64,000 nucleotides of DNA from Schmidtea polychroa. Lineage: Eukaryota. Positions 465 through 55,680 of this stretch are shown piece after piece; the stretch's first letter is position 1; each line of letters opens with the position of its first letter. The stretch covers positions 25,358,001 to 25,422,000 of the forward strand of contig CM097887.1 in the NCBI GenBank assembly GCA_044892525.1. The letters are read 5' to 3'. Position numbers and translations under genes: made by a program. The notes under the pieces were generated by a model. That model saw nothing but the letters and a program-made list of their open reading frames with translations, was not told where the DNA came from and searched no databases.

Positions 465-552
465 TCCGAACTCCGATAGCGCAGTGGGAATAGACTGGCA
501 TTGTGGTTCAAATGCTAGCGGTTCAAATCACGTCTGAGGTTAGTTTTTTTTT
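465..552 (+). ncRNA. Putative Pol III small RNA cassette 2 (copy A)
   Basis: A-box 477-487, B-box GGTTCAAATCA 520-530, T9 run 544-552; 234-bp tandem paralog of cassette 1 with a different 3' segment. Confidence 0.58.
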
Positions 553-29090: not shown

Positions 29091-30248
29091 ATCTTTAATA
29101 TCAACGAAACAACTCAACACATGAAGTTTTATTAATCAATAGAAATGACACTAGATTTCCAAATTTAACTCAATACAAGGGCAGGGATCCCGATGGGAAG
29201 CTGCCTCAAGTTTGTGGTCACCTTTGTTGATTTGATGGCTCCTTATATAGACATCTTCAACATTTAATTTACATTGACTAAATTCCATTGATTGGGTTCC
29301 CGGGGAACTAATAACTCTAATCTATTTCCAAACTAACTCCGCCTTAGCCGTTCCCCAAGAAGTTGTTTGATTAAGTGAAATTTAATTAATTTTCTTTTTA
29401 AGAATTTTTATTTTGTTTTTCTCCTTTTTATTGATTAATTAATTAGTAATTAACTTTTTCTAGGGATTCAAATTAAGCTTAGATTGTTATTTCTGTACTC
29501 CTTTTGTGAATTGGCACCGTCACATACCCATTTCCACGGGAAATATTGATGCTTACTTTTTACGATTTTTGAAAATTAATTATTTTATTTTTCAATTTTT
29601 GTAAAATTATATTAAATATGCACAATCTCAACAACATTAATGATGTATCATGAATTATGAATTATTGACGGCACCGAAAAATTACTAAAAATAAATAATA
29701 GTAATAAGTCATCAGAAAATTACTGTTAATAGAATTCTGATGACGAGGTCTAAAAAAAGTAATTATTTCAAAATAATACATAATAGAGTAATTTATAAAT
29801 TAAACCACCCCAAAATTTAAGTAGGAAGGAATGCATAATTCTGAGAAACGAATTAATTAAGATTTAGATTACAAAAGATACGAGAATAAATTTCAGAGAA
29901 AATTTAAAGACAAGGATATCATAAGCAGGTCAAATCAATTGATAAAGTGAATTTTAGAAATCCAGAGAAAAATAATTTGTTCAGGGATTTCTCAAAGCGA
30001 GAAAGGAAAATTTTGATTGTAATAGTTGATTTTGAATAGCGAACAATTAAAAAGAAGAGTGGCAGAATTTGGTATTTATACGAAATTCAAGTATTTCAGC
30101 GGGGAGATGTTTCTGTAAGGAATATTACCAGGAAGCTAATATTCGAAAGAAACCATTAATTGAAATTATTTTGTGAACAGGAATCAGATATTAGTAAAGT
30201 TTGAGATACATTTTATCCTGAGATCGGAACAGAGAAAATTTCTTATTG

Positions 30249-30293
30249 AGTAGTGGGGATATATCCCTAACGACCACAGGCCTCCCACTGTTT
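30249..30293. repeat. Polinton left TIR (45 bp)
   Basis: AGTAGTGGGGATATATCCCTAACGACCACAGGCCTCCCACTGTTT; reverse complement at 40305-40349 and 1421-1465. Confidence 0.95.
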
Positions 30294-30295
30294 AA

Positions 30296-33200
30296 AATAA
30301 AAAACAAAATTCTGACGTTGAAGAATGTCATTCAGAAGGAGAACCTGATCATGTTGAAAGAGAAAAATACAACTGGGATGATTTTAATCATATAGATGAA
30401 TTTCAATTAAAAATTAATGGACCTGCAACCCCTGGAGAATATATAAGGAGAAATAAAAAAAATATTAAAAATTCTTTCACTGAAGCTTTAAAAAATTATA
30501 AACCAACAAGGTATAATGTTATAAAATATAAAATTACAATCAAAGCAAAATATTGGAGAGGACCAGAAGAAAAGACAACTCCTTTAGATGTTGAAATTGG
30601 AATACCTTTTAAATATTTATTTTCAACTAGAGGATTTAATAAAAGCATCAAAGAAATAATTCAAGCAGTAGAAGCAAAACAAGAAGAGGTTGAAAATGAA
30701 TTAGGAGATTCAAACTTAGTATTCAACTCTTTCCAAACTTTAGTGATTGATTATTGGAGAGGATTACCACCTAATCCTAAATCTTATATTCAAACACCCT
30801 TTAGATCTAGGGTTGTTATAAATGTACAGAATAAGGATAACAAATGTTTCATGTGGTCAATACTTGCATATTTACATCCTCAAGCTGAAAACCCCCAAAG
30901 AGTTCAACAATACAAACAATATGAAAATGAATTAATATTTCCCAAGGGATTCACGCACCCAATGAAACTAGAAGACATTCCAGAATTTGAAAAACTAAAT
31001 AATCTTAAACTTAATATTTATGAACATGTTAAAGGATGGGGACATGGAAGGAAAGATATTATTCCAATTTATATTTCTGATAGTGATAGCACGAGGGAGA
31101 TATATCTTTTAATCTTGGAAGAAGGAAATAATCAACATTATGTTTTAATAAAAGACTTTCAAGCTTTTACATCACCAGAGAATCCAACTAGTGGAGGAGG
31201 AACATGTAAAAGATGTCTTCATTATTCAACAACTAAAAACTCTATGATTAAACATGCAAGATTTTGTGAAAAAGATGATCCAGCTTTAATTAGAATGCCT
31301 ACAGATCCCAGGATGTATTTTAAAAACTTTTCAAATTTATTACAAACATTAGGAGTTGTCTATGGAGACTTTGAATCTATAAATCGTAAACAAGATATAA
31401 TTATGCAATATTTAAAAATAATAGAAAAATATAAACTCATGGATGAATGGAAAGCCTCTAAACAGAAGATGAAACCAGAGAGGATGAAAGCCTTTCTAAG
31501 AAAAAGAAATAAACCTAATAGTGTTAAAAAAACTAAACAATTACCATCTGCTTATAAACTATTATTTAAAAGTAATTATCCTGAACTCATAAAATCTAGA
31601 GAATATGCATTTCAAGGAACTTCAGAAGATGTTTTAAATCATTTTACTAAAAGTATAAATGATCTAGAACATGAAATATTTAAAATATTAAAAACAAAGT
31701 ATCCTCAAAAAATTTCTAATCAACAACAACAAGAATATGAAAATACTTCCAACTGTTGGATGTGTAAACAAGACATTCTTCCTGATGATAAAGTTATAGA
31801 TCACGATCATTTAAAAAAGGAAAATAATTATCGAGGAGCAGCCCATAGAAATTGTAATCTTAATTGTCATACTCCTAAATTTGTACCAGTTATATTTCAT
31901 AATCTTTTTGGTTATGACATACATCTATTTATTAAACATTTAGCAGAAAATGCTAAAAACTCTTTCAAAGTTATAGGACTAACAAAGGAAAAATATAAAT
32001 CAGTTGAATATGGAAAATTAAAATTTATAGACTCGTTAAACTTTCTCCAAATGTCTCTAGATGGAATAGCTAAAACAATGAAAGCAGAAAATTTTAAAAT
32101 CACTCGAGAATTCTTGGAAAAAAATAATATCCCCCAGAAGAATATCCTACATGCTTAGCAAAAGGAATATATCCCTATGACTATGTTGATTCATTTGAAA
32201 AATATAATGAAACAAAATTACCAGAGAAAGAAGATTTCTATTCCCAACTTCAAAAATCTCATATTACAAATCAAGAATATTCTCGAGCAAATAAAATGTG
32301 GGATCTTTTTAACTGTAAAACTTTAGGAGAATATACAAGTATGTACTTATCCCTAGATGTTTATATTCTAGCAGATTGCTTTGAAGAATTTACAAAGTCT
32401 TTTGTTCTTAAACCTTATAATTATATAACAGCTCCTTCTTTAGCTTGGGATACTATGTTATATACCATTTGGACTTCAGATCTTCCAGAATCTGATAAAA
32501 TTATAGATCTTTTAACCGACCAAGATATGTTTAATCAAATTAAAACAAACATTAGAGGAGGAGTATCTTCAGTAATGGGGAATAGAGAAATAAAAGCTAG
32601 AAATGCAATAACTACTAGCCGAAGAATCTCTAAACTCCCTGATCCATATATAAAACTTAACAATGAGGAACTAAAAGAAGTATTAGAAGGAATGAAAAAT
32701 CCTCTATTTATACTTTATATAGATGCAACAGCTTTATATTCAGGAATTATGACTCAATATTTACCAATGAGTGACTTTCATGAAATATATCCTCCAGAAT
32801 GCCCCTCAGAAGAAGAATGCCCCTTAAAAGACCTTATGAAAGAAATACTTTCAACTCCTAAAGATTCTCCAATAGGATACTTTGTAGAATGTGACCTCGA
32901 CTACCCAGATGATATAAAATCAGGAACAAGACATTTCCCTTTAGCTCCTATAAGAAGAAAGATTGATATCAACGAACTTTCTGAATGGCAAATCTCACAA
33001 GATAAACCTCCAACAATGAAACTTCTTTGTGATCAAACAGATCGAACTTATTATCTTTGTCACTATAGACTCCTCCAGTTTTATCTTTCACAAGGAATGA
33101 TATTAAAAAAAGTTCATAGTGTCATAAGATTTAAACAAGCAGCATTCATGAAGACTTTCATCGAGGAGAACATTCGTTGTCGAAACATTGCAAAAAGAGA

Positions 33201-34398
33201 AGGTAACCTTTTAAAAGACAATAATTATAAACTTTTAAACAATTCAGTCTTTGGGAAAACAATGGAGAATGTTGATAAATATACTCATATTGAACTCCTA
33301 ACAAATACCCCGAAAGATATAGCCCGTTATAATCGTATGCTAGGAAAGCCTACATTTAAAAACGCACAAGTATTTTCTGAAAATCTTACTGCAGTAGAAC
33401 TAAAGAATTATGAGAAAACATATAATAAACCAATATTTATTGGCTTTGCAATTTTAGAACTTTCAAAATTACAAATGTATGAAACATATTATAACATCTT
33501 ACAACCTATATATGGATCGAATATAGCAATGCATGCAATGGATACAGATTCAATGTTTTTAACAATAAGAACTCACGATTTACAAAGTGATATCTCTGAA
33601 AATCCTATACTTTCAAATTTAATAAATTCATCTGGAGAATTATTTTCGTTTAAAGATGAAAAACCTTTTACTCCTATAGAAAATGGAATATTTATTCGTG
33701 CTAAACAATATTCATATGAAACATTTACAAATCCTAAATTTGAAGAACATACATTTATATTTAAAACCCCAGAAACAGAAGAAAGCATTACACATAGATA
33801 TCCTATATTCCCTAAAGGACCTGACGGACAGGGAGAAAAACCTGTAAAGGATAACAGATGTAAAGGAATTCAGAGATGTGTAGCAAAGAATCTTTCTCAT
33901 CAAGATTATATAGATACATTGAATCCAAATCATAAAGATAAAATTGATGAAATACATCAACTTAAAAGTGAAAAGCATGATATTTACTTGATAGAATCCC
34001 AAAAAGTATCATTATCAAATTATGATGACAAAAGATTCATACTAAGTGATTTAAAGACAACTCTTCCTATAGGAAATAATTTAATACCGATAATAAAAAA
34101 TCTTGATAGATTGAATCAGTTATATGGTACAAAGATTACTAATCTTGATATTTATAATGTTGAAATCATTTATCCTGAGAGAATTGAGAAACCTTTATAT
34201 TCTCAAGTTTTTAATCCTATATGTTTAGAACTTAAATATTTTAATACTGATCCTGAATATATAAAAGGTCTAAGTGATAAAGAATTTAAAGATCATAAAG
34301 AGGTTCTAAAAACTAATTTCGAAAAGTTAACATCAGATTCTATCAAATTTCATTTTTATTTAAATATTTCTTTAAATCTTGAATATGTTTTGCTTTAG
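30296..34398 (+). pseudogene. polB: Protein-primed family B DNA polymerase; one frameshift, no start codon
   Basis: INVQNKDNKCFMWSIL, YGDFES, endoVII-like CWMC..DHDH..YRGAAH..CN, FHNLFGYD, KGIYPYDY, YIDATALY, KLLNNSVFGK, DTDS, DDKR. Frame is open from 30296 without an ATG; 1-bp deletion near the C5 run at 32131-32135. Confidence 0.95.
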
Positions 34399-34927
34399 CA
34401 CTACCATGTACTAATTCTATTAAATTTAAATATTTTTTAATTTCTAGAAGATCAACATTCTCTGAGGGATATCCACAAACTAATCCATAAAAATCATCTG
34501 TAAATTCAAAATCTAGGTGTTTAGTATTATAAACATTTTGTGAATGAATACGTGATTTATTTTCTGAACTTAAATATAACAGAAAGTCATGTTTATTAAT
34601 TGTTATTATTTGATATCCTTCAACATTAATATTAAATGTAGGTTTAATTGTTTTACTTAAACTCACATTAATTTTAGGATCAAGTATAAGAGGTTTTATA
34701 TTTAAATCTTCCAACCATGGTAATTCTTTTAAATCTTGTTTATCTTCCAACTCTTTAAATTTTAAAACTTCTAACTCTTTTATGGCTTTAATTGTTGGTC
34801 CTTGTTGTTGTTGGATTACCTCATTTAATATTATAGATTCAGCGTGTTGAGTTGTATCTTTTTTATTATATTTATCTTGTTCTGATTGTAATTTTTTTAA
34901 AAGTGCTAATCTTTCTTCATATACCAT
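34343..34927 (-). CDS. Polinton hypothetical protein (194 aa)
   Basis: Intact ORF inside the element; coiled-coil-like N-terminus; 56-bp convergent overlap with polB. Confidence 0.75.
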   Translation of the reverse strand: MVYEERLALLKKLQSEQDKYNKKDTTQHAESIILNEVIQQQQGPTIKAIKELEVLKFKELEDKQDLKELPWLEDLNIKPLILDPKINVSLSKTIKPTFNINVEGYQIITINKHDFLLYLSSENKSRIHSQNVYNTKHLDFEFTDDFYGLVCGYPSENVDLLEIKKYLNLIELVHGSAKAKHIQDLKKYLNKNEI

Positions 34928-34949
34928 TTTAATGGTATTAAAAATGGTA

Positions 34950-35555
34950 TCATTTTGGTAAAGGATCCGTTGGAAAGGGTTTCAAGTATAAACCTTTACC
35001 ATTTTTAATTTTACAAAGACATCCATTCTTTAAAGATTTACATATTTTTTTAAAATCATCTTTATCTTTTGAAGATAAAGATTCAGATGATGAAATTTGA
35101 TTTTTTAAAAAATCATTTAAACCACGGCCTTTATAAGGATCAAGATAGAGACCCCTTCCCTGAGACTTTTGCAGACTCCCCTCATATGGATTAAGATAGA
35201 GACCCTTTCCAACGGACACTCCCCCTTTAGCTTGATCCTTCTTCATTGAATCGATTTCAGTTTGTAGTTTTTCTTTTTCTAGGTCTGTCTTTTGAGATTC
35301 TTTAGCTTTTTGAACTGTAGTTGCAATTCCTCCAGCTATTCCAGCAGCACCTGATAGTCCGGCAATGATTACAGGTATTAAAGCAGCTAATGGAAGAATA
35401 CCTCCGGATTTGGAGGAACTCCCTATATGTTCTTTAACTTGTTCTTTTACATGTTTTCCAATAAAATATTTTTTACCAGAGATTACTACTGATTTATTTT
35501 TATTTGAATTTATTAATTCTTGCAAAGATTCCTCTGTAGGGTTTTGTGTTGTCAT
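34950..35555 (-). CDS. Polinton putative virion core or membrane-active protein (201 aa)
   Basis: Gly/Ala-rich hydrophobic stretch GGILPLAALIPVIIAGLSGAAGIAGG and three G(K/R)GLYLxP(Y/F) repeats. Confidence 0.7.
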   Translation of the reverse strand: MTTQNPTEESLQELINSNKNKSVVISGKKYFIGKHVKEQVKEHIGSSSKSGGILPLAALIPVIIAGLSGAAGIAGGIATTVQKAKESQKTDLEKEKLQTEIDSMKKDQAKGGVSVGKGLYLNPYEGSLQKSQGRGLYLDPYKGRGLNDFLKNQISSSESLSSKDKDDFKKICKSLKNGCLCKIKNGKGLYLKPFPTDPLPK

Positions 35556-35571
35556 TTTATAATAAATAAAA

Positions 35572-36351
35572 ATGGATACTTGGAAACCAATTTTAAATAG
35601 ACATAAATCTAAATTTAATAATAAAGTATTTCCTGATAATTTTAGATGCTTAATTATTGGATCTTCTGGATGTGGAAAGAATGTTCTTCTTATGAGAATG
35701 TTATTAGAAGATGGTTTTTTGGATTATAATAATTTAATCTTTTATTCTACAACCATTAACCAACCGGAATTAAAACTTTTGAAATGTGGATTTGAAAATA
35801 AATTAACTAAAAAAGCTATAATTGATATTTTTAAAAATCAACATACATATCCCGAAGAGGTTTTTCATCCTTGTGATATGGTTGATTGGTACAAGGAAAA
35901 GATTTTAGAATCAGATATTAGTAATAAAAATGATTATATAGGGGATGGAATCCAGATCTTATTCTCTAATAAACCTGAAGATGTTTTACATTGTGATTTA
36001 CTTCCTAAAGATAAAAAGAATCTAGTTATATTTGATGATGTTGTTAACATGAAAAATCAAGAGATTCAAAAGAGTTACTTTACACGAGGTAGACATAATA
36101 ATTGTAATGTTATTTATATATCTCAAACATATTATGCTTTAGATAAAAACTCTATAAGAAATAATTCTAATTGTTTTATATTTTTTAAATTAGACAAGCG
36201 TGATAAGAATATGATTTATAATGATTTATTTTCAAATGTTGAACCTGATAAGAATATGTTTGATATGTTTCTTGATAATCATTGGAAAGAAAAATATAAT
36301 TATATTTATTTGGATAGAGAAGAAGCTGAAATATGGAAAAGTTTGTTTTAG
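35572..36351 (+). CDS. A32/FtsK-like genome packaging ATPase (259 aa)
   Basis: Walker A IIGSSGCGKN, Walker B LVIFDD, FTRGRHNNCNVIYISQTYY and IRNN motifs. Confidence 0.93.
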   Translation: MDTWKPILNRHKSKFNNKVFPDNFRCLIIGSSGCGKNVLLMRMLLEDGFLDYNNLIFYSTTINQPELKLLKCGFENKLTKKAIIDIFKNQHTYPEEVFHPCDMVDWYKEKILESDISNKNDYIGDGIQILFSNKPEDVLHCDLLPKDKKNLVIFDDVVNMKNQEIQKSYFTRGRHNNCNVIYISQTYYALDKNSIRNNSNCFIFFKLDKRDKNMIYNDLFSNVEPDKNMFDMFLDNHWKEKYNYIYLDREEAEIWKSLF

Positions 36352-36362
36352 GGCTTGTCGAC

Positions 36363-37775
36363 TTAAAAACTTGTTTTCTGTAGTTCATTATTATAAAATC
36401 TACCTAATATTTTTTCATTATTTAAATCGATGATACCATATGTTATTGGAGTTGTATGATGTATTTTATTTATAATAAAAATTTCATTTGTCCATTTTGC
36501 TGTGAATCCTTTTTCAAATTTATTTTTATATTTAAATATTCTTACGCGGTCACCAATTTTAAACTTTGGTTTTATGGGTGTTGTATCAATATTTACCACT
36601 TTAACGGTTTCGGGATTTATGAGTTCCAAAGGATTCAAGGAAGCATTTAAAGGTGTTAATTTTATAGAACTATGTACATCATTATTATATTCATTTACAA
36701 TCTTTTGTAACAATTCATTGTTCCATTTTTGTTTTCCAATAGCAGTAAAATATTTCCACATTTTATTTTTTAATGTTCTATTTAATCTTTCAACTACGAC
36801 TGCTTTTCCTTCGTTTTCTGTTGAATATAATTTAATATCATTTTCATTTAAAAACTTTGTAAAAACTTTGTTATAAAATTCTGTTCCTTTATCACACCAT
36901 AGATATTTTGGAATTCTTTGATGTTGTTCAAATATATTTTCAAATGCTTCTGTAATAGAATATCCTGTTTTATTTTCTAAACATCTTGCAAAAGCAAATC
37001 TTGTATATAAATCTATTACTGTTAAAATTATTTTATATTTTTCAGGGTCTGATGATTTGGCTGGCATAAAGACTAAATCTGCAGACCATGTTTGATCTTT
37101 TTCATGTACTTGAACTTTTAAATATTTTTTATTTTTTCTAAATTCATGGTGTAATTCATTAGCATATTTTATTTCTGATTCTGTTGGGGTTTGTAAACTA
37201 GTCTTGGCTGTACTCTCGAGGGATCGTTCAATCTCTGCTTGTTCGATAATCTTTTTATTAGCAACATCTTTTGCTTTCCTAGGAAGTCTTGCACCCATGG
37301 TGATCGGACTGTGTCCTAAGCCTATGAAAATCTTACCTTTCATTGCTAATTTAACTAGAGCTCTTTGAATCTTTTCTTGGGTTGATGGATTTTGTATATT
37401 ATTTAAATCATGTATTAAATTCACATCTGCAACATGTCTATCTCTAAGATTTGTTGAATTGTAAGCAATATCATGTTTTAAAGCTGCTTGGTCGATTCTA
37501 TTTATTGGTTCTTCTCCTTGTTTAGGATTATTATTTTCATCTAATCTAATATCTAATCTTGTTCCTGGTCCAGTATAATTGTGACGGAATAAATGTCTTT
37601 CACCTGGATATTTTTCTGTAGTAAAAGGTTTTAATATTGTAGATGTTGTTTTTGAAGATTGTAGGTCGCCTCCTGTAATATCAACTCTCGTATGTTTTTT
37701 AGTTTTTAAATGACTTGCTTTGTGATGTCTTGTAACTTGACAATTACAACTTTCACATGTCCAATATTTACTCAT
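36363..37775 (-). CDS. Integrase with N-terminal C2H2 zinc finger and parvovirus-type PLA2 domain (470 aa)
   Basis: CESC..HHKASHLKTKKH; HNYTGPGT..DQAALKHDIAY..RHVAD; DDE core WSADL, LWCDKGTEF, VERLNRTLK; C-terminal FKIGDRVRI. Confidence 0.93.
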   Translation of the reverse strand: MSKYWTCESCNCQVTRHHKASHLKTKKHTRVDITGGDLQSSKTTSTILKPFTTEKYPGERHLFRHNYTGPGTRLDIRLDENNNPKQGEEPINRIDQAALKHDIAYNSTNLRDRHVADVNLIHDLNNIQNPSTQEKIQRALVKLAMKGKIFIGLGHSPITMGARLPRKAKDVANKKIIEQAEIERSLESTAKTSLQTPTESEIKYANELHHEFRKNKKYLKVQVHEKDQTWSADLVFMPAKSSDPEKYKIILTVIDLYTRFAFARCLENKTGYSITEAFENIFEQHQRIPKYLWCDKGTEFYNKVFTKFLNENDIKLYSTENEGKAVVVERLNRTLKNKMWKYFTAIGKQKWNNELLQKIVNEYNNDVHSSIKLTPLNASLNPLELINPETVKVVNIDTTPIKPKFKIGDRVRIFKYKNKFEKGFTAKWTNEIFIINKIHHTTPITYGIIDLNNEKILGRFYNNELQKTSF

Positions 37776-37804
37776 TTTAAAAGTTTTTTTATGGGGGAAT
37801 CTAC

Positions 37805-39100
37805 TTATGAAGAATCTCCCCTAACATTTTCAATAATTGAAATCTTTCCACCATATAATTTCATTTCTATTTTCTTTTCTTCTAATATTAATGTATATAC
37901 TTTAGCTTTAAAATTAGAATCCTTTGTTATATGAAGTGTAACATCAACATTATTTATGGCTAGGCGATCATCTTGGTCTGAAACATTTATACAAAATATA
38001 GAATATAAATTTTTGAAATCTTCTAAACTTAATTGCGGTTCAACTTTGAAATCATAACATGTTTCAATATAATTTAGATATGGGAATATGTTTTCATTAT
38101 TTTCAATATTAAATTCCATTCTATTTATTGGATAATAAGAACTATTTAATTGAATTTGGATTGTTTTTAAATTATCATTTCCAATCTTTTGAATAAACAA
38201 GTTGTTATTTTTTTGAAATGATGGATCTGTTTCTTTGAATCCAATCAAGATATATCTTGGTCGGTATGCTAAATTTGCCACCTTTATAGAATATGTTGAA
38301 CCCTCTGTCATACTAAATTCACTACAGATTCTATTTAAATAATTTACATTTATAGACTTGTTGGAATTTAATCTTTCAAGGAGTTTGATTTCAGAATGTG
38401 GATTTAATGTCCATTCAGGTATATGCAATTCAAGTGTTGATAATTTTAATTTAGCTTTTGTATCTGCAGCTCCATAGAACAATCTTTTATCACCTTCTAG
38501 TCTATTACAGATGAGTTCTATAAAAACATTATGGAGCACCCGGTTATAGTTTTGAAGGAATCCGAACAAGTGTTTTAATTCAAAATAACCTTCAAATTTT
38601 TTCAACTTATAAAGTTCAACTCTTTTATAGTAAGCATAATTTATATCTAAACCATCTTTATCTAAATCCCCTTTATTAACATCAGGAATCCAACCTGTTA
38701 ATTCACCATATTCGTTTTTATAATCACAACCAGTTAAAATAAAATTTAACATTGTAGAATATACTCCTGGATGCAAAACAGTTTCAATTTCTGATGATCC
38801 TAGTTTTAATCTCATGTTGGAGAATAAATTTGGAAAGAAATTATTTTCTAGGGTTATATCTTTGTTTGCTTCAATTTCTAATTCAATTTTATAATATAAT
38901 TTGGCATTACAAATATCTACTGGGTTTGATGTTTGAAGAGATTGAAAAACTATATCACCCCTACGATTTAAGTTTGCAATAGATCCTGAAGTTGGCAAGA
39001 TTTTTAAAATATCATTTTTCTTGATTTCATGAGTAAATTCTTTATTATAATCAAGATTTAATTTATTTTTTTCTTGAATTTTAAGATTTATATTATTCAT
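37805..39100 (-). CDS. Polinton major capsid protein (double jelly-roll, 431 aa)
   Basis: NNFFPNLFSNMRLKLG, RPRYILIGF, IQLNSSYYP and FKNLYSIFCINVS fit the Maverick capsid pattern, as do size and context. Confidence 0.85.
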   Translation of the reverse strand: MNNINLKIQEKNKLNLDYNKEFTHEIKKNDILKILPTSGSIANLNRRGDIVFQSLQTSNPVDICNAKLYYKIELEIEANKDITLENNFFPNLFSNMRLKLGSSEIETVLHPGVYSTMLNFILTGCDYKNEYGELTGWIPDVNKGDLDKDGLDINYAYYKRVELYKLKKFEGYFELKHLFGFLQNYNRVLHNVFIELICNRLEGDKRLFYGAADTKAKLKLSTLELHIPEWTLNPHSEIKLLERLNSNKSINVNYLNRICSEFSMTEGSTYSIKVANLAYRPRYILIGFKETDPSFQKNNNLFIQKIGNDNLKTIQIQLNSSYYPINRMEFNIENNENIFPYLNYIETCYDFKVEPQLSLEDFKNLYSIFCINVSDQDDRLAINNVDVTLHITKDSNFKAKVYTLILEEKKIEMKLYGGKISIIENVRGDSS

Positions 39101-39132
39101 TTTTATAATAAAAATTTAAAAAATGATAAAAA

Positions 39133-39219
39133 TCCGAACTCCGATAGCGCAGTGGGCTAGACTGGCACAGTGGTTCAAATAGATAGCGGTTCAAATCCTA
39201 ACTACGGTTAGTTTTTTTT
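39133..39219 (+). ncRNA. Putative Pol III small RNA cassette 1 (copy B)
   Basis: A-box 39145-39155, B-box 39188-39198, C(UACG)G hairpin 39198-39211, T8 run 39212-39219. Confidence 0.6.
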
Positions 39220-39350
39220 AACATAAAATAATATTAAAAATTTGAAAATAATATTGAAAATGGTGTGGGTATCTTAGATTTATATTTTATTTTATTTATT
39301 TTATTTTATTTTATTTTTTTATTAATTAAAAATTTAAAAAATGACAAAAA

Positions 39351-39438
39351 TCCGAACTCCGATAGCGCAGTGGGAATAGACTGGCATTGTGGTTCAAATG
39401 CTAGCGGTTCAAATCACGTCTGAGGTTAGTTTTTTTTT
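39351..39438 (+). ncRNA. Putative Pol III small RNA cassette 2 (copy B)
   Basis: A-box 39363-39373, B-box 39406-39416, T9 run 39430-39438; identical to 465-552. Confidence 0.58.
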
Positions 39439-40066
39439 CAACATAAAATAATATTAAAAATTTGAAAATAATATTGAAAATAATTTTTGAAAATAAATAT
39501 TAAAAAAATATATAGTGTGGGTATCTTAGGAAATAAATCTTGTTTATTTTATTTATTTATTAATTAATTAATTTTTAAACATAAATATGAAAAAAAAATA
39601 TTGAAACGGGTGATGGTGGCGAACCGGTAATTATCGCCACCAGTCTTTCGAACACCCCCGGATCGATTCTATAATGTGCACATTTATTTCTTGGTTGTTT
39701 TCGGACCTCTTTCGGATTCGCTTTCGAATTCATTTGTACTTTCGAGCAGCACACTTAAAACGCCGATGAAATCGACTTCGTGAGCGAGAAGCGAATAATA
39801 AGGTGTGCTGCTATTATCGAATTGATTCTGATATATAAGTCTGGCCAGCTTGTATATTGGAAGAGATTTGATAAACGAAAGAGGTTGAAATAAAAAAAAA
39901 ATGATCCGGATCAAAAAAAACTGTTGAGAGGACAGTGAAAAAAAAAAAAAATACCACTGTCCTCTCAGAGCAGTTTTACTATTTTCATAAAATTTTTTAT
40001 TCTTCAAGATTAAGATTTATAAAATTATAAATTAGTCAAATAGCAACTTGCTAGTTGACATCCTCA

Positions 40067-40130
40067 AGTAGTGTGTTTATATCCCTAACGACCGCAAGCC
40101 GACAAACGTTTTTCATAGTTTTATCAGTAT
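40067..40130 (+). repeat. Internal degenerate copy of the Polinton terminus
   Basis: AGTAGTGTGTTTATATCCCTAACGACCGCAAGCC..., inverted relative to the right TIR; also at 1180-1243. Confidence 0.8.
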
Positions 40131-40639
40131 TTTTCTCCGTTTTATTAATATTTTTGTTGTTTTTTTTAATATTTTTGTTGTTTTTTTTAAGTCTTTATTT
40201 TGAAACCAAAATGTCTTCAGAATAAAGAAATTAAAAGATATAGGTTTTTAAGGTTTTAAGTGTTTTTTTTACGTTTATGGGGGAAAAATAGGTATAAAAC
40301 ATGAAAACAGTGGGAGGCTTGTGGTCGTGAGGGATATATCCCCACTACTTTATTGTAATTAAAGGAAATCGAAATGAAAATAATTAAATAATGAAAATAA
40401 TTAATAGCATCAAATTTACTGTTTGCAAAGCTTTGAACCGCTTTTGTCACACCCGAAGTGTTCCAAAATCGCAACTTCTGACCCATCTTCAATCTTGCAA
40501 TGTAGATCGATGTGCTGCCAAGAAGCCATAGATCTCATGCAACCTTTTAAGCAGATTTATTTGATCGAGAATCTCAATCTTGAGTTTTCAAGGTTTTTCT
40601 CGAAAATTTTATAATTTTTTACGATTTTCAAGGGGTTTC

Positions 40640-44170: not shown

Positions 44171-46246
44171 NAAGTCGCGGTTTTTTTCAGACGCTGACGG
44201 TGCTGCGACTTAAATAAAGGAGCGACTTATATAATAAGTTTAATCACGTGCCGTTTCTATAATAAATCTAAATGTAATCAACAATTTGTGACTGTTCTGT
44301 CTTTGATGAACTGATAATTGATGCCGTGGTTATCAAAGGCCCTTTTTGTAATATGATACAATCATAAACCATCACCATCATTATAATATATCTAAGACGC
44401 CATATAGCCTATTTCGTAAACCAAGCTTACAGGATGTCTAGGCTAGGCGAACTGCCGCCATGTTGGCGTGTCAGTTTAACTGCCGATCTGATTGGTCATT
44501 TCGGACCCTGGATCCGAAATTTGAGAGCCCATCAAACAAATGTCAGCTTTAATCACCAGATGGCAGTGTATATAAGACCACTGTAATAGATTTCCTGTCA
44601 AAACAATTTAATTTTTCAAATTAAAATATACCGAAAGTTTAGTGCAAAATGAGTTCCAACAAAACAAGGAAATCGTACACTGCCGAGTTTAAGCTGCAAA
44701 CTATCAAATTTGCTGAGGAAAACGGCAATCGAGCGACTGAGCGGCGATTTAATATTAGTGAAAAACTAGTTCGAGATTGGCGAAAATCAAAAGATGCGCT
44801 GTTGCTGACAAAAAGAACCAAGCGGGCGAATCGAGGTCATAAAGCAAGATGGCCGGGACTGGAAAATCAGCTTTCTAAGTTTATTGTGGAGCAGCGAGCT
44901 CAAGGTCGCGGAATATCAACCGTCCAAGTTCGTCTTAAGGCCAAAGAAATAGCGAATGATCTGGTAATTGATGAATTCATTGGTGGACCATCTTGGTGTT
45001 TTCGTTTCATGAAGCGCCAGCAGCTCTGCATCAGATCAAGAACGACCATGTGTCAACAACTGCCTGCTGACTACATCGAAAAAATCCGGAATTTTCGTGA
45101 ATTCATTTATTCAAAAGTCGCGAAATATGAAATCATTCCAGATCATATTATCAACATGGATGAAGTTCCACTCACCTTCGATATTCCTCTGGGTCGAACT
45201 CTCAATAACAAAGGTGAGAAAACGATCAACATAAGAACAACTGGCCACGAGAAATCGCAGTTTACGGTCGTGCTGTCATGCTGTGGTGATGGAAGGAAGC
45301 TTCCTCCAATGATAATCTTCAAAAGGAAAACCATTTCCCAACAACGTGATCATTCAAACCAACGCAAAGGGATGGATGAATGAAGAAATGATGAACATAT
45401 GGTTGGAGAGATGTTTCAAAAAGAGGCCTGACGGATTCTTCAAAACTAAAAAGGCATTGCTCGTAATGGACAGTATGCGAGCTCACATCACAGAGAACAT
45501 AAAAACGAAAGTTAAAGGCAACAACTCGATTCCTGTCATTATACCAGGTGGTCTGACGAAGGTGCTACAACCTCTGGATATTTCTGTCAACCGAAGTTTC
45601 AAGGTCCATCTGCGTCGTTTGTGGGAAAGATGGATGACCAGCGGTGAACATAGCTTTACGGCAACAGGTCGCATGCGTCATGCCACTTTTGCGGAAGTGG
45701 CCAAATGGGTGGTCGAGGCATGGGATAAATTGAATCCGGCGATTATCACCAGTGGATTCAAGAAAGCGGAAATCTTACTGGCAGACAATGATGACAACGA
45801 CGACTCTGATAGCGATGATGATGATGACAACTATGAACTGACTGTACCAGATGAAATTGCTCAATTATTTGAAAGCGATACTGAAGATGAAGGCTTTAAT
45901 GGATTTAATGGATTTACAGACTCTGATTTTTATTGATAAATTTAACTTCATTAATCGACATTTATAACTTAGGCATTTCGTTTTATTGATATAAATAATT
46001 TCTCTATAAATTAAAAAGAAATATTCCACGTTATTAAATACTTGCGCTAAATGATTTTTGTTCTCACCTCTTCTCTTTAGTGTCTTTAATTAAACTTGGC
46101 GACCACCACCGAACAAAGTAAACATTTCCGCAGAGGCATGCTTATTACTGTATAAGTGCGACTTAAATAACGGAGCGACTTATATATTAATTTTTCCAAA
46201 ATTTTAGCCATTTTTTACAATTGCGACTTATACACAGGAGCGACTT
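44171..46246 (+). mobile_element. pogo-family DNA transposon (termini fall in N-gaps)
   Basis: Subterminal gcgactta(a/t)ata repeats on both sides of a pogo transposase. Confidence 0.85.
44649..45936 (+). pseudogene. pogo/Tigger DD35D transposase, one frameshift
   Basis: BrkDBD-like YTAEFKL, CENP-B HTH, NMDEVP, LLVMDS, QPLD; frame break at about 45330-45350; acidic C-terminal tail. Confidence 0.92.
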
Positions 46247-46451: not shown

Positions 46452-49400
46452 TTTGAGATTCTCAAAGTTGCACTGGTGACTATATAAGGTCTATCAAATA
46501 TGAAAACAAAGTCTGGTTTGCAAATATTTATTTTGAAATACAAAATATTACCAATACAGATTCCGTTTAAAAAATGATTCCACTGAAAGATGGTTCGTGT
46601 TATATAAATTTTATATGTTGTGTATGCGTGTTATGTTGCTTGTAAAACCTTGAACATTTTTGTTATCGTACTGTTCTAAATTAGAACTTCTAATTTAAAA
46701 ACTAATAAGGATCTTTAGAAACGGTAAAATTTTTGGGCGACCACTACTGATTTCGGGTCGCTATTTATTTTATTTTTAAACGTGCTAACATATGCAAATT
46801 TTATTTATTTATTTAAATATTGACATATATCGTAAAATCGTTATTGAAGAATTTGTGTTTAATTAAATAAATGTTATTTTTTTATGAATTATGTTTTCCA
46901 TGTATAAAAGAATTAAATAAATAAATTTATATTTAATTATTGCGACAAATTATGTTTCCTTAAAAATTATTATTTAATTTACTTTTCATTTTCAACATTA
47001 AAATGTATTTGTTTATTTAAGTTTTTCAATGTTTATCCTCATTGCTCGAACCGAGTTGTTGCCAAATTCAATTTGTTCACTCGCGCCGAGCTGTTACATA
47101 CATATTTGAATTCGGCCCGAGCTGTTATTTATTTTATTTTAACTAAAAATTAAATCAAGAAAACTTAACTTATTTTTATTAAATTGATTTAAACAAAACT
47201 TATTATAATTTATATTTTGAAAAATCTTCCTTTTTACATATATAATTAATTGTTCATTATATATAATTAAGTGTTCACCGATAATAAATAAACCATCAAT
47301 AAATAAGATATAAAAATAGTAGTGACATTGATAATAAAACTACATCTTCGGTATTACCGGTATTACAAAATAAAAAACCGGTAATTACCGAAATTTATTA
47401 ATTTCGTTAAAAATGATATATTTTAAGTCCTATTTCTTTGCTGACTGGCATTTCATGGTCTACGTCTACATCAACACAAAACTGATGGGTGTACATTTCT
47501 ATGAAGCTTTTATATTTTATGACCTCCAATATATCTAATTTATCTGGACGGATTGGAGTCAACGAATGGCCGTCGGAAGTAATTCCGATACATTTGACGG
47601 CTCTTTTGAATAGCAGGTAAAAAAGGCCGGCCGGAAAGGCAAGATCTTTTTCGGTCTGTTTCTCCAAAAGAGTCGCCAAATTTATACAGTTTTGTTTTGA
47701 CATCCTTGCTGATCAGTAATACGCGCAGCATAAAAAGAATCGGTTCGTCAAGTTCGTCGAGATTTTTTCGTGTGAACATTATTATACACAATTCAACAAA
47801 AAATACATAAAAGTTTCGACGTTAAAAGTTTCTGTAAAAGGTAAGTTTTTAATTATTTTTTATTAATTATTTATTTTGTATCGAGTATATTTTTTTAAAT
47901 AAATAATTATTTTAGGGCACAATGAACGGAAAGAAAGAAACGCCATGGAAATACTTCAAACGAGAAAATACTGACAAATACGGGATACTGGCATATGCCA
48001 AATACAAGCTTGCAGTAAGCACATCAAAGCACCTGGTAGCAGTACTAGTGGATTACATTCCCATTTAAGAACCAAGCACAATATTAATTTATTAAAAAGA
48101 GACCATGATCACACCAATAACGATGCTGTTGTCAAAACATCGGAGACTATTCGTTCTGGTCAAATCACATCGTTTTTGCGGAAAAAAATCGACGACTCTT
48201 TGCCAGCTGTAATATCGAGTATGATCGCTGTAGATGGTCTTCCGTTTATTTCAATATGTAAATCATACGATATACGAAAGCTGCTTGAAAGAAAATACGA
48301 AAATATTCCAAATTCTCCAAGTGCCATACAAAATATTGTTATCAATTATGGAAAAAATGCCAAGAAAGAAGTAACAGATGAATTACTGTTCAGAAAGCGC
48401 TAGTTAATCAAATTCAGTTAAACTCTTGATGAGTGGACATCGATTAGAAATCGGAGATATTTAAATATCAATGTGCACGATGGCACAACTTTTTGGAACC
48501 TCGGCCTGAGCAGAATTCACGTGAAAATGCCAGCAGAAAAATGTGAAGAAATTTTGAGAAATAAATTGGAAAATTTTAACATATCTTTAAAAGATATCGT
48601 CGGCTGCACAACAGATGGTGCATCAGTAATGCGCAAATTTGGATCTAATTTAAATATTATTCACCAAAGAAAAATTATATAAAAAAATGCATCAAAATCT
48701 TGTTATAATGTGCGAAATGAAAGAGTAAATAAAAGCTCGAATTTACAAACTACGATTCGCAAAGAAATGAAAACTGAAAACAAGGAAAACAAACAGAAAT
48801 GGTTTACCAATATTTAAAAACCATTCGTCCTACTAGTGTAGAGTCTGAGAGAGCCTTTTCAGCCGCAGGATTAATTTGCACGAGAATAAGGTCTAGGTTA
48901 GCGGACGAAAGTTTAGATACATTGTGTTTTAAAAATCCTATTTTAATACAAAAAATATTGTAAATTAATTCATTCTATTTTTTTTCTGTTTCTTTTTATA
49001 AAATATTTTGATTTAATAAACATAATGTAAGGATTTCAATGTATGTATTGTAATAATGTAACAATTAGTTTTAATAAATTGTTTGACCTCCTCATTGTTA
49101 TTCAATTTTATCGATTAATAAAACATTTTTAAAAAAATTGTATTGTGTATCTTTTATAAAATTTAATAAGTTATGAAAGTAATTAAGAATTAACTAACGT
49201 AAATTATCAAATTAATTAATTATTAATAACCAATAGTTAACAAATTAATGATAAATGCAAAAATGGGGAGAATTAATAATAGAAGTTGAATAAAAGAAGA
49301 ATAAAATCGGTAATACCGGTATTGCAAAAGTCGGTATTTTTGGAATCCTTAATCACATATTATATACAAGTTAACGCGAGTTAATCAAATTGTTTATTGA

Positions 49401-49562
49401 ATAGATTTGGGATTGCATTGGACGGATTGGATTAGATTACCTGCTTCTGACATTTTTCTTTATTTATTTTCGGCATAAATACTGAGCCTGTATTTGTTAG
49501 CTCCTGTTTTATAATATTTTGTGAGTTCAAAATAAATTTTCGATGACTTTGTCACCCAAAAA
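46452..49562 (-). mobile_element. Family-2 LTR interrupted by a hAT insertion
   Basis: 46452-47200 is reverse-homologous to 56900-57670; the 5' part at 49400-49562 encodes FELTKYYKTGANKYRLSIYAEK*. Confidence 0.65.
47345..49351 (+). mobile_element. hAT (BED-finger, Ac/Hermes-like) element relic
   Basis: taccggta subterminal motifs at both ends; right terminus ...tttttggaatcctta. Transposase relic 47921-48940 has a BED finger, LDEWTS, TTDGASVM and PTSVESERAFSAAG. Confidence 0.82.
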
Positions 49563-49627
49563 ATACTATTTATAGTATAACCTTTACATATAACTACCAA
49601 AAATAGACTACGTCTATTTTTAGCATT

Positions 49628-49651
49628 ATATATATATATATATATATATTA
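49628..49651. repeat. (TA)n microsatellite
   Basis: Run of TA dinucleotides. Confidence 0.9.
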
Positions 49652-49788
49652 TTTTAAGTACTTGTTTTTAAACTTCTTTTGGTAATATTTATTTTAAGAC
49701 CAAGGGCCTAACCATTAACAATAATAATAATACAAATACTTTGTAAAAAATAATACAAATACTTTGTAAAAAATAATAAAAATAATTT

Positions 49789-49823
<35 letters not shown>

Positions 49824-51423
49824 TCTAATGTTAACATTTACTTAGGTAAATTGAAGTGGAACACATCGAGCGCAGAGTAATGTCACCGAAGAAAATTGCA
49901 GACAAAATGAGTATTGAATGTCGTATGTCCACGTGTCAAGTGATAAATGGATTGAGTGCATCATATTCGGAACCAAGGGGTATGGTCGCTGGGTAAGCTT
50001 TGATATCAATGATTTAAAATTCGTTTATATTTTCATTCGATTTTTATTAGTAATTCATTATTCATATTTTTATTTAAAATAAATATCGGTTGACCCGTCT
50101 ATTACGGCCGTCTGGGGATTGTGGGCATTCATGCTAGTAGTCTCCAGGTGAATCGTGGTAGGTGGCGATACCAAGAGGTCATTCAATTTTGATAATAATC
50201 TGTTGAAACGAGCGGGGTATCATCACCGAGTAGCAACACGACTAAATATTTCAGTCGAAAGAATTTCCATATGACGATCAGATTTTAGTTCCAACGTTTC
50301 GGACCTAGAGAATTTCCATGCGATAGACAGATTTCGGAGACTTCGTTTTGTTCCTACTTTTGAACTTCAAGCCGAGATTTTCGACACTCTTTCATACGGC
50401 GATTAGAGCATTTTCACACCATCTCGCAAGCAATTCAATTTTCGTTTAGAATCGTCAGCTTTGCTTTCTAGCGTATCTCCACTTTCTCGTGAATCACTCT
50501 ACGAGGTAGTCATAGTAATGGAAGATCGACAATGTCCATATAGATTATGGGTACCTTTCAAATCGTAATTTTATCGATTTCCAGTGAATATTGCTCGGTA
50601 CTAAACATCCGGTCACTTAAGCATTAACGTCTTCTCGTAAGAAATACCCTTTGATCAAACAATTCCACTACGTTCGTCAACGTCGATTTGTACAAAGCTA
50701 ATTTGATTTTATTCACATAAATATCCTGAATTGCATCGACAATAGTATTCGATTTTGTTTATAATCATTTATTGTCCGAAGAATAATTATCACTAAGCGT
50801 ATACATCTATATGAGGCATCAATGTTAATATAAACATAATCCACCAGAACTAGATGTCAGTCAGTCATAATTGTCAACAATATTTACCATTTTGAATTCG
50901 AGAAAATAAACATCGCTTTAAACTGTTTATTAGATTTGATAGTAAAGTAAATATACAGACTGTGATAATTAATGCGCTGGGGAATTTTGAATTCAAAGTA
51001 AGTGAGATGTAAAAGAGAAAATTAATAAAAATTTGGGAATGAATTTCCTAAAAATCAAGACAACGGGTAATAATTAAAGAAATTCTACATTTTCCCGAAA
51101 CCGTAATACATTAGCGAGATAAAAAACTTTTTTTATTTTTTTTGTGTGTAAACATATCCTGAATTATCCTTAATCATTTATACACTAGATAATTTAAACA
51201 TGGGTTTTGTGTAATTAAAGATAAACTTACAACGTTTTTGATCAAATCCTACCCTTAATAGCTTCAATGAAACCGGTATATACCCAATTCACGTACGATA
51301 GAGACAAATGAAGTACCTATCTTAAAAATAAATCTGAGAGATGAAGTTGATTGAGTAGCGCAAGTGGCGAGTGATTCCGGAATGTGCTAATGCAGTTTTT
51401 TTGATTTGTAATTACATTATTAA

Positions 51424-52731
51424 CCTTCATCCATCCCTCGGGTCTTTTTCGACCCGAAGCGATTTTGTTTTGCAAATATATCATAAAATATTAATACTAC
51501 ATATCTGTAATTTCGTGACTTTGATTTTGTTGATATGATAAACTAATTTTGGAAAAGAAAAAAAAATATGATACCTGGATTATCTCTTGTAAAAAAAGTA
51601 ACACTCCAGTCCCTCGGGTCGAAAATGACCCAAGTGCATTTTTGAAATTTGAAATTTTTAGAATTCGCGGCGCAAACGGATGTTTTTATCACCTTCTAAG
51701 AAGTACTCTTTTCTAAGAAGTAATTTTTCAACAAAATTTGACTGTATAGTTTTCAACAGTCGACTCAAAGACGCGGACGAGTGTGCATCAATAATATTTG
51801 TGCTACCCGTTTCATCACTTCTCGTTTTTATTGAATTTTTTGCTGGCAAAATTTCAAAAAAATTACATACGTTATAACCTTGGTAAGTGTTTATTTGAAA
51901 GAAAAAACGTTTCCATTATTTTATTACCCTTACTTACTATTTTGTGTAGAATTATCATCATGTCAAGACGAATTGAATATGAAGAAGATAATTTACTTGA
52001 ATTTTCATCGGGAAATGATACCTGCTCAGAGACATCAGATCATATTGAATAATTGATTGAAACTTCTGATAGGGACATAGATGATGTACATTCTGGATCT
52101 ATACCATATCTTTCTAAGGATAAAAGTATTGAATGGCAATCAGAGCCCTTTATTCAACATGGCCGTCAATCATCATCAAACGTGATTAGAATTACCCCTG
52201 GAATCACAAGATATGCCATTTCTCGCATATCAACATAACTCTCTGTATTTCAATTATTGTTTACAAATTCTATAGAAACTATTATTATTCAAAATACCAA
52301 TTTGGAAGGAAATCGCGTATATAAAAAGGATTGGAAAAATATTGATATTATCAATATTATCAATTATTGGACTTTTATTGTTAGCTGGTGTATATAAATC
52401 GAATAATGAGGCTTTGGAAAATTTATGGCATGAAACAAAGGGTCGACATATATTCAGAGCTACTATGTCACTAAAACAATTCAAAATTATATTAAAAGTC
52501 ATTCTATTTGATGATCGTAGTACACGAGCTGCTAGAAGAAATACTGACAAATTAGTTCCAATTCGAGAACTGTGGAATAAATGGGTCGAAATATTACCAC
52601 ATCTTTATAATCCGAACGAAAATATAACAATCGATGAGCAATTGGTTCCATACCGCGGAAAATGTTCATTTCGACAATACATTCCAAAGAAGCCGGCTAA
52701 ATATGGGATTAAATTTTGGGTGCTGTGCGAT
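51424..52731 (+). mobile_element. piggyBac (PGBD4-like) relic, 3'-truncated
   Basis: TTAA followed by CCTTC..CGGGTC..GACCCG. From 51960, ORF with stops reads FRATMS, TIDEQLVPYRGKCSFRQYIPKKPAKYGIKFWVLCD. Confidence 0.88.
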
Positions 52732-52779
52732 TACTCATTTTTCTTTAGTTTTACATTATTAAAACCGTTCAATTTGCAG

Positions 52780-53180
52780 ATGAAGCCAAGTACGAGCAAA
52801 AACCAATTGATTGAAAGTGAACATCGTTTGTTTCAAGAAAAATGGGAGATTAAATATTTTTTCATTCAAGAAAACGGCAAAATATTCTACTTAATATGTC
52901 GATAGAATGTTTCAGTGTGTAAGGAGTATAATATGAAAAGGCATTACGATCGTTGGAAAAATATGTGAGGAAAAGTTGTTCGGATTAAAGGCAATTCTTG
53001 GAAAACAACAAAGCATTTTCACTAAACCAGTCGCAGAAAATTTGGCCACCCTAAAAGCCAGTTATCGCTTATCTCATGAAATTGCAAAAAAATGAAAACC
53101 ATTCATGGAATGGGAATTCATTAGTGAATGTTTAATAATAGTAGTTGAAAAGTTATGCCCGGATATTATAAATAAATTAA
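52780..53180 (+). pseudogene. hAT GTF2IRD2/SPIN-like transposase N-terminal relic
   Basis: EHRLFQEKWEIKYFF..LIC..KEYNMKRHY..ASYRLSHEIAK..KPF..EFI..CL. Confidence 0.78.
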
Positions 53181-55332: not shown

Positions 55333-55399
55333 GTCGCGTATGAGGCTTCGACGCAACATTTCAACGCCTCAAGGAACATACTCTGAAAATCAATAAGAA

Positions 55400-55680
55400 C
55401 AAAATAGCATATCTGGACGATATACTGATAGAGGATCCAAACAAATCTATCCATTTAAGAGATATTGGAAAGGCATTCGAAACATTGTAGACATCAAACC
55501 TGAAAATCAATATCCAAAAATGCGAATTTTTAAAAAAAATGAAATAAACTTTCTTGGGCACACTCTGGACGAAAAAGGCACAAACCCAATCGAGAAAAAA
55601 ACTCCATTCAACAATTTAAGCTACCAAACACAAACAAACTACCAAACTTGTGCGATTTCTGGGAATGGAAAACTTTTGAC
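55400..55680 (+). pseudogene. Ty3/Gypsy reverse transcriptase relic
   Basis: AYLDDILI..LKINIQKCEF..NFLGH..RFLGM, with stops and frameshifts. Confidence 0.8.

Follow-up and report, generated by a model that had tools for sequence, protein, structure and literature searches.

Polintons are copied from their ends by a protein-primed polymerase and inserted by an rve integrase, which leaves a 6-bp duplication. Published excerpts on these elements (class Polintoviricetes) give a length of 13–25 kb, terminal inverted repeats and a target site duplication (TSD) of 5–8 bp, and list as hallmarks a protein-primed DNA polymerase B (pPolB), an rve integrase, a packaging ATPase, a maturation protease, and capsid proteins, both major and minor (bioRxiv 10.1101/2023.08.22.554363; PMC11071308; PMC6431247). 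They have also been described in planarians, according to part of the text of PMC8532177.

The window analysed here, a stretch of 64,000 nucleotides from Schmidtea polychroa, contains a 10,101-bp element that an earlier note, made from the letters alone, had assigned to a young Polinton/adintovirus family that was either streamlined or had lost its left arm. Our results indicate that this element is very probably one defective copy within a high-copy Polinton (adintovirus-type) family of 14–15 kb, lacking ~0.8 kb at the left and ~3.2 kb in the middle.

Ends and gene content of the 10,101-bp copy

The element has AGTAGT/ACTACT ends at 30249 and 40349 and is flanked by an exact TTATTG duplication, as the earlier note had read. 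The outer 45 bp of the two ends are complementary at 43 of 45 positions. The features of the window are listed below.

1–1465, + strand: right end of a sister, copy A (whole element 14,226 bp, G000:C3:25345240-25359465, TSD AATGAG)
30243–30248, + strand: left TSD TTATTG, identical to 40350–40355
30249–30293, + strand: left terminus with GGGG-type motif; outer 45 bp kept, inner inverted copy and rest of the left arm gone
30293..30294, no strand: deletion junction 1; 804–864 bp absent relative to the four closest sisters
30296–34398, + strand: protein-primed DNA polymerase B, broken (PF03175, E 5.4e-13; 93% of the sister protein covered)
34343–34927, − strand: shortened ORF without assigned function (194 aa here versus ~265 aa in sisters; 72% cover)
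34348..34349, no strand: deletion junction 2; 3,200–3,284 bp absent relative to four sisters
34950–35555, − strand: 201-aa ORF with a weak match to adenovirus core protein X (PF05829, E 0.028, below the cut-off)
35572–36351, + strand: A32/FtsK-type packaging ATPase, 259 aa (PF04665, E 2.4e-8)
36363–37775, − strand: rve integrase, 470 aa (PF00665, E 6.5e-12), with an N-terminal parvovirus-type PLA2 domain at residues 61–142 (PF08398, E 3.5e-9)
37805–39100, − strand: double-jelly-roll capsid protein (PF21738, E 2.5e-27)
39145–39414, + strand: two tandem units (39145–39196 and 39363–39414) with A-box/B-box-like words and a T run after each; possible Pol III units
40067–40349, + strand: right terminal unit, 283 bp; inner motif of GTGT type at 40067, outer motif of GGGG type and inverted to the inner one
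40350–40355, + strand: right TSD TTATTG, identical to the left TSD

The count of six genes given previously agrees with the six coding units found: pPolB, the 194-aa ORF, the 201-aa ORF, the A32 ATPase, the PLA2-rve integrase and the capsid protein. Penton and protease had been noted as missing, and indeed 0% of either sister protein is covered by the element. The 201-aa ORF likely encodes a virion core protein, as suggested by the adenovirus pX match of its sister sequence (E 0.0035). For the capsid, 97 scored copies stand at 96–100%. The integrase had no PDB sequence match, and protein searches yielded no named relatives.

In the right arm, ARAGORN called no tRNA and no Rfam match exceeded the gathering score; the A-box/B-box-like pattern occurred 4 times in the window versus 0 times in 100 shuffles. 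One strand of the right terminal unit is predicted to fold back on itself (z −6.85).

Full-length sisters and their gene set

The family comprises ~1,000 copies in the genome (977 polB matches), mostly 13.7–15.5 kb long. All 16 sister pairs chosen by end motif or capsid similarity and with matched TSDs, two of which represent one duplicated insertion, measured 12.6–15.5 kb and had a 6-bp TSD. In a sample of 40 copies, drawn from the first 100 listed of the 977 polB matches, 15 had both ends and a matching TSD, and 12 of these were 13.8–15.1 kb long. The remaining 25 had no TSD-matched end pair; hence, broken copies are common, and the size figures apply to a subset. Mosaics and deletions occur among other TSD-bounded copies as well; examples are elements of 5,981 bp and 12,193 bp and another whose two ends differ in type.

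The sisters carry ten genes, with penton and protease among them. Both were present in all 26 sisters that were fetched whole (94–100% cover for the penton, 79–100% for the protease). The compact or streamlined family proposed by the earlier note, which had named full-length copies with a standard gene set as evidence to the contrary, is thus not what the genome contains. Recovery of further copies, as the note had suggested, also included the whole of copy A. This sister is close to the 10,101-bp element rather than near-identical as had been claimed, with 94.6% and 94.0% identity over two shared blocks and 85–100% per 500-bp window. Its polB matched PF03175 with E 4.1e-16, a profile that covers polB only in part in both copies. 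The ~205-aa ORF of the sisters had no Pfam match; it may be reminiscent of 'Cupiennin', a gene that, with GasderminX, marks the virion module of Adintovirus Beta.

The structure check that the note had recommended was performed on the 256-aa sister protein. Its model (pLDDT 83.5) had the mavirus penton as its best Foldseek match (E 1.4e-10), followed by adenovirus pentons, while sequence searches gave no Pfam match and no clear PDB match (best E 0.64). By its modelled structure, this protein is a penton with the mavirus-penton fold. The ~143-aa sister protein has a profile match to adenovirus proteinase 1avp (E 9.5e-4) and invariant H-D-Q-C residues; 3 of 18 homologues matched PF00770, and there are 151 matches in the genome. 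Its Foldseek matches were all weaker than E 0.001 (best 1.2e-3), with CE-clan proteases in all top rows. Profile and predicted structure together identify it as an adenain-type protease.

Deletions and origin of the defective copy

Junction 1, at which no clear microhomology was found, removed the rest of the terminal unit, the upstream region, the polB start codon and the N-terminal zinc fingers. Junction 2 removed four genes, namely the ORFs of ~205 aa and 336 aa, the penton (256 aa) and the protease (~143 aa), and took the 3' end off the ORF that follows. Microhomology at the junctions amounts to 0–1 base, and each junction occurs once in the 781 Mb genome. Sequence was lost as the earlier note had supposed, not as a whole left arm but through two internal deletions.

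The same note had counted one frameshift in polB and five uninterrupted ORFs. The frameshift is present: polB is split over two frames (30296–32158 and 32128–34398), with the shift in homopolymer runs near 32.12–32.14 kb. However, polB has two more lesions, as its first ~90 residues and start codon are missing and its own stop codon was lost at junction 2. The 194-aa ORF is open, but the internal deletion cut it to 72% of the sister protein, so that four ORFs are whole rather than five. The 10,101-bp copy is a patchwork whose segments best match different sisters. The first 500 bp of its polB were 100% identical to all four GTGT-end sisters and 90–92% identical to all 12 GGGG-end sisters.

Contigs of four sequencing runs were compared with the locus; ten runs that had a share of 0.30 or less or were metagenomes were left out. 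In two of the four runs, contigs crossed from flank to end without mismatch. In the other two, contigs ceased to match precisely where the element is inserted, continuing for 242 and 267 unseen letters. Among the contig pieces listed, none bridges either deletion junction. Because of the exact TSD and this pattern at flank and insertion point, the sequence indicates a recent insertion, and the earlier assignment to a young Polinton/adintovirus family holds.

With neither penton nor protease nor a whole polymerase gene, the 10,101-bp copy is likely unable to replicate or to build particles unaided, and the loss of penton and protease classes it as a defective derivative rather than a complete member. 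Its exact TSD, its two retained outer ends and its four whole ORFs might instead suggest a lineage streamlined to six genes, or else a non-autonomous compact subfamily under continued mobilisation. Yet, each junction occurs only once, polB is headless, frameshifted and stop-less, another ORF is cut mid-gene, and the missing genes are present in 26 of 26 sisters. We therefore rejected such a lineage or subfamily as highly improbable. An assembly artefact, in which reads from several copies had been merged with a loss of 4 kb, could be suspected in view of ~1,000 similar copies, the patchwork of segments, and the lack of a bridging piece among those listed. However, the two flanking TSDs agree, contigs from two of the four runs contain the flank-to-end junction, and further TSD-bounded copies (5,981 bp and 12,193 bp) are mosaic or deleted too, which makes an artefact unlikely.

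If the defective copy is accepted as real, its deletions may have arisen before or after insertion. Because the 45 bp at the left belong to the GGGG end type and the adjoining polB to the other, we slightly favour rearrangement before integration: the copy would have undergone rearrangement while extrachromosomal, and its integration would have relied on proteins from its sisters. Somewhat less likely, a full-length copy was inserted and lost both segments later in the chromosome through end joining. Host end joining can leave 0–1 base of microhomology, and GGGG outer ends on GTGT-type arms do occur at right ends (13 of 20 rows, the commonest GGGG type). Conversely, in none of the 16 whole sisters does this polB 5' type lie behind a GGGG left end, and the copy has few other lesions for one that underwent two later deletions. 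Should deletion have preceded insertion, integration may need no more than 45 bp at one end. The copy itself is of little weight, as deleted copies are to be expected in a large young family.

Against a firm timing before integration, the same sequence would also result from a parent with a converted outer end in which deletion followed insertion.

Inner copies of the terminal motif

With adenovirus and phi29-type protein-primed replicons, the family shares terminal origins and a tendency of the outer ends at left and right to be the same. Its left and right repeats are 67–97% identical, and most ends have, 240–330 bp inside, a second copy of the terminal motif in inverted orientation. Eight terminal variants are each exactly matched by their own inner copy, and the identity between outer and inner motif usually breaks in the same way at position 28. 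The inner motif is fixed in place and orientation, and adjoins the polB start on the left. All 18 rows of the GTGG end type, among which one end or more was counted twice, lack it, and one alignment shows a clean 48-bp deletion. One successful subfamily thus deleted the inner copy, which is therefore dispensable, and an essential role was rejected.

A parvovirus-like flip-flop of the terminal unit was not seen at TSD-defined ends, where the outer motif and its own downstream sequence stay together. Co-variation of the polB zinc fingers with end type was not supported by inspection by eye of 45 loci, 2 of them unreadable.

The variant-for-variant match likely reflects an end that folds back on itself, in which the last ~27 bases of most ends would pair with the inverted copy 240–330 bp inside. 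Repeated copying between outer and inner motif might, less surely, keep both identical. A tentative extension is that the inner inverted origin copy serves as a local back-up template: the 3' end of the displaced strand would fold into a mini-panhandle, so that priming or repair of each end could proceed independently of the far one. Local priming or repair would allow left and right repeats to drift apart and new origin variants to sweep both sites. An alternative explanation, which we consider less likely, might be that the inner motif binds a protein, as a second origin or as an operator would, and that selection rather than templated copying keeps it identical to the end. Its fixed place and orientation beside the polB start would fit such a site. 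However, the polB zinc-finger region is nearly unchanged across very different end types, a successful subfamily lacks the motif, and the break at position 28 is as expected of a copying tract.

If the back-up template exists, Polintons would have a way of maintaining their ends that has not been described for them and that could be read from ~1,000 genomic copies. Arguments for how Polinton ends are copied and repaired, one step of the self-synthesising model, have come mostly from analogy with adenoviruses. The family is a more useful resource than the single copy: its ~1,000 recent, recombining members, which bear several end types, hold a record of that step, and computation alone would suffice to test the match between inner and outer motifs across the whole genome.

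Comparison with known systems

The family carries all Polinton/Maverick hallmarks listed in the excerpts cited above, and its sisters fall within 13–25 kb with terminal inverted repeats of 100–1500 bp. The present copy differs in its 10.1 kb length, its left repeat of only 45 bp, which places it outside that range, and its broken polB. It retains pPolB in this form, the rve integrase with 6-bp TSD, the packaging ATPase and the major capsid protein; it has neither the penton nor the maturation protease found in the family.

Animal adintoviruses likewise combine adenain, PolB, integrase, FtsK-type ATPase, hexon and penton, according to Starrett et al. (2021; PMC8502044); our family is known here from assembled contigs. 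A pX-like core gene occurs in both, as does a PLA2 domain of parvovirus type. In the family, however, PLA2 resides on the integrase, whereas the adintovirus PLA2X gene described in that text has it on the pX-like gene; no gene of the Adintovirus Alpha PLA2X type was found, as the pX-like ORF had no PLA2 match. Planarian and flatworm terms had no match in one text supplement of that study. No description of a PLA2-integrase fusion was found in the literature searched, nor a mention in the available portion of PMC3671162.

A TBP-carrying Polinton family in the same genome likewise has AGTAGT ends and a related polymerase and integrase. Identity of the two families was rejected, because their main matches are only 25–34% (polB) and about 30–34% (integrase) identical and, at E 1e-4, 10 loci of the TBP-carrying family matched neither the capsid nor the penton nor the ATPase. 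The inner inverted copy is absent at the three ends seen in that family. Elsewhere, relatives were found neither in viral contigs nor, with a single-protein query, in metagenome contigs; an alignment query of the latter recovered at least 18 loci. The longest among the matches listed (L048) has polB, protease, penton and capsid.

The family is an ordinary, very abundant Polinton, with the inverted inner copy at most of its ends as its one unusual trait. No description of such a copy was found in the literature on Polinton/Maverick terminal inverted repeats, hairpins, subterminal motifs and panhandles, a search outside which most subscription papers and Repbase lay. A role for panhandles in protein-primed replicons is described in part of PMC4046053. 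In adenovirus and phi29-type replicons the panhandle forms between the two genome ends, whereas in this family an end may in addition pair with the inner copy it carries.

Gene content of the focal copy

The Polinton at window 30249-40349 (10,101 bp; the focal copy) starts with AGTAGT and ends with ACTACT, and TTATTG flanks it at either side. Within its outermost 45 bp, 43 of 45 positions are paired between the ends. Pfam matches were obtained for pPolB, the A32 ATPase, the rve integrase with a parvovirus-type PLA2 and the double-jelly-roll capsid protein; a 201-aa ORF showed a weak match to pX, and a 194-aa ORF was without a Pfam match. Comparison with sister proteins revealed neither penton nor protease. 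The earlier note's inventory is correct in outline, as the TTATTG TSD, the AGTAGT ends and the lack of penton and protease were all seen. Its five uninterrupted ORFs, however, are four whole ones and the 194-aa ORF, which is cut at junction 2, and its one frameshift in polB is one of three breaks (junction 1, the frameshift and junction 2). The frameshift lies in homopolymer runs and might be either real or a base-calling error.

Window 36363-37775, minus strand: parvovirus-type PLA2 joined to the integrase N-terminus
Window 30293/30294: junction 1, outer 45 bp fused to the polB interior; 804-864 bp lost relative to the four closest sisters
Window 34348/34349: junction 2; 3,200-3,284 bp lost relative to four sisters

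The size of the focal copy is explained by these two deletions. Junction 1 removed the polB start codon and ~90 residues with three zinc-finger-like motifs, and junction 2 connects the polB stop codon with the interior of the 194-aa ORF. A genome search tolerating one or two mismatches found each of the two junctions a single time. The right arm contains tandem A-box/B-box units with T runs, possibly Pol III genes (window 39145-39414), as does the right arm of copy A, the sister described below (window 243-528).

A standard family with high copy number

In the 781-Mb assembly (where the window is G000:C3:25358001-25422000), the element's first 20 bases matched 97 places, most pairs lying ~14 kb apart. 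A 22-mer of the 5' part of polB occurred 977 times (reversed control, 0), and the capsid protein yielded 97 scored copies with 96-100% identity from 3,239 candidates. A first set of 16 sister pairs, picked via end motif or capsid similarity and including two that are one duplicated insertion, had a 6-bp TSD in 16/16 and sizes of 12,593-15,504 bp. In a second set, 40 copies out of the first 100 polB matches listed, both ends with matching TSD were found in 15, of which 12 measured 13.8-15.1 kb and the remainder 5,981, 12,193 and 17,059 bp; for the other 25, a matched end pair was not found within the stretches retrieved.

Contrary to the streamlined family that the earlier note offers as one of two options, penton and protease genes were both present in all 26 sisters retrieved whole, and both are absent from the focal copy. 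The capsid gene was absent from 2 of these 26 within the sequence retrieved. The supposedly near-identical sister does exist in the same window (copy A, 14,226 bp), but its identity is ~94%. The focal locus is very probably a single, recently inserted copy with two deletions, from a standard Polinton family of high copy number, and the finding as originally posed is ordinary.

The sisters have four extra minus-strand ORFs, of ~205, 336, 256 and 143 aa, in the interval that separates polB from the 194-aa ORF. The 256-aa protein had no Pfam match, no clear match among PDB sequences and a capsid-family match in 0/27 aligned members; its structural model (pLDDT 83.5) resembles the pentons of mavirus (E 1.4e-10) and of adenoviruses. 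In the 143-aa protein (151 genome matches), His, Asp, Gln and Cys residues are invariant across 18 aligned sequences, 3 of which matched PF00770. Its profile matches adenovirus proteinase (E 9.5e-4), and the top structural matches of its model are CE-clan proteases, the best at only E 1.2e-3. The 336-aa ORF (L001:5686-6693, minus strand, in a sister locus), also absent from the focal copy, has a coiled coil and no clear Pfam match; from its resemblance we presume that it may be a fibre protein.

Probably recent insertion and mosaicism

Contigs of sequencing runs X15 and X16 cross the flank boundary and continue for 30 bases of the element end with zero mismatches. In contigs of X1 and X2 the match ends at 30248, followed by 242 and 267 further letters. 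This break may mark an empty site, which would make the insertion polymorphic and recent.

The first 500 bp of the focal polB are 100% identical to the 4 sisters with GTGT-type terminal motifs and 90-92% identical to the 12 with GGGG-type motifs. Its left 45 bp, in turn, are of the GGGG type, identical to the right end of copy A and with two differences from its own right end. Judged by sequence, the focal copy is a mosaic. Since a GGGG left end is joined to a GTGT-like polB, we lean slightly towards recombination of co-replicating molecules before integration rather than later deletion. An assembly error at this locus would agree with the fact that no contig among those listed bridges either deletion junction, yet we consider it improbable.

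Other rearranged copies and neighboring elements

Four loci (L013, L028, L029, L030; G000:C4, 6,205 bp each) hold a polB-only element with two inverted left arms, resembling a copy-back defective genome; they share the TSD ATTATC and hence represent one insertion, later duplicated with its flanks. In L018/L019, L031/L032 and L035/L036 the left end bears a copied right arm, which is either an additional 1.29-kb arm lying beyond the normal left end (a single insertion, duplicated) or a replacement of the left arm. The polB-only elements and the copies with a duplicated right arm are consistent with strand-displacement replication with template switching.

The window also contains an element with long inverted repeats of 22-bp units (14799-16511) around a 370-aa ORF (15031-16143) resembling a Tc1/IS630-type transposase, a pogo/Tigger-like transposase in two frames (44643-45936) and, separate from the latter, inverted repeats (46526-46815 and 57293-57585) around ~11 kb (46526-57585).

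Inner inverted motif copies in most family ends

In most ends of the family, the terminal motif recurs in inverted orientation 240-330 bp further in (window 40067-40349; L001-L036, L065-L144). All 16 first-set sisters have, at either end, a unit of 242-309 bp delimited by these outer and inner motifs. The identity between left and right units is only 67-97%; the exception, at 100%, is the duplicated insertion in which a copied right arm forms the left end. The right unit of the focal copy (window 40067-40349; z -6.85, 0/200 shuffles as stable) and the left unit of copy A (z -6.69) are predicted to self-fold, a stability due to the inverted repeat.

Across all loci, both motifs were listed in 64 rows, which represent 60 ends because four rows repeat an end in the opposite reading direction. 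Outer and inner motifs agreed exactly over 24 bases in 26/60 (raw 29/64; 10,000 shuffles of the raw rows, mean 4.3, maximum 12). Because the copies are related, distinct outer-inner combinations were also counted. Of 22, among which one inexact row duplicates another in reverse, 8 were exact, against a shuffled mean of 1.45, and 0/10,000 reached 8. Thus eight different variants, including a very divergent one, each have their own exact inner copy. This requires the same change at two sites, which means that some copying or strong selection ties the two together. L077/L078, an element of 14,896 bp with matching TSD, has ends of two very different types, each closer to its own inner copy than to the opposite end.

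The end structure is real and measurable; for its mechanism we prefer a model in which the displaced strand's 3' end would fold back onto the inner copy and be repaired with it as template. That each end carries its own back-up origin template, primed or repaired without the far end, is a tentative reading, and several observations argue against a central role of the inner copy. This inner motif is missing in 18/18 GTGG-type rows (removed through a 48-bp deletion in the single alignment made) and in the three observed ends of the TBP-carrying family, a separate Polinton family in this genome; many GGGG right ends keep a GTGT-form inner copy (13/20 rows, the commonest type); and polB zinc fingers, compared by eye in 45 loci (2 unreadable), do not follow end type. 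Flipping of the terminal unit was not found in the TSD-defined ends.

Comparison with known systems

An inner inverted end copy in Polintons was not found in the literature searched, Repbase and most subscription papers aside. Casposon repeats with internal palindromes are described in PMC4046053. Polintons are reported in planarians (PMC8532177). A relative on a 9,190-bp metagenome contig (L048; capsid 51% identical) has its polB, protease, penton and capsid genes arranged differently. The family has the adintovirus gene set of PMC8502044, but its PLA2 is on the integrase, whereas published adintovirus maps place PLA2 on a pX-like gene. The family also agrees with the Polinton definition in bioRxiv 10.1101/2023.08.22.554363 (13-25 kb, 100-1500 bp repeats, 5-8 bp TSD, six core genes), from which the focal copy departs in penton, protease and size; the focal copy is a defective derivative of a Polinton.
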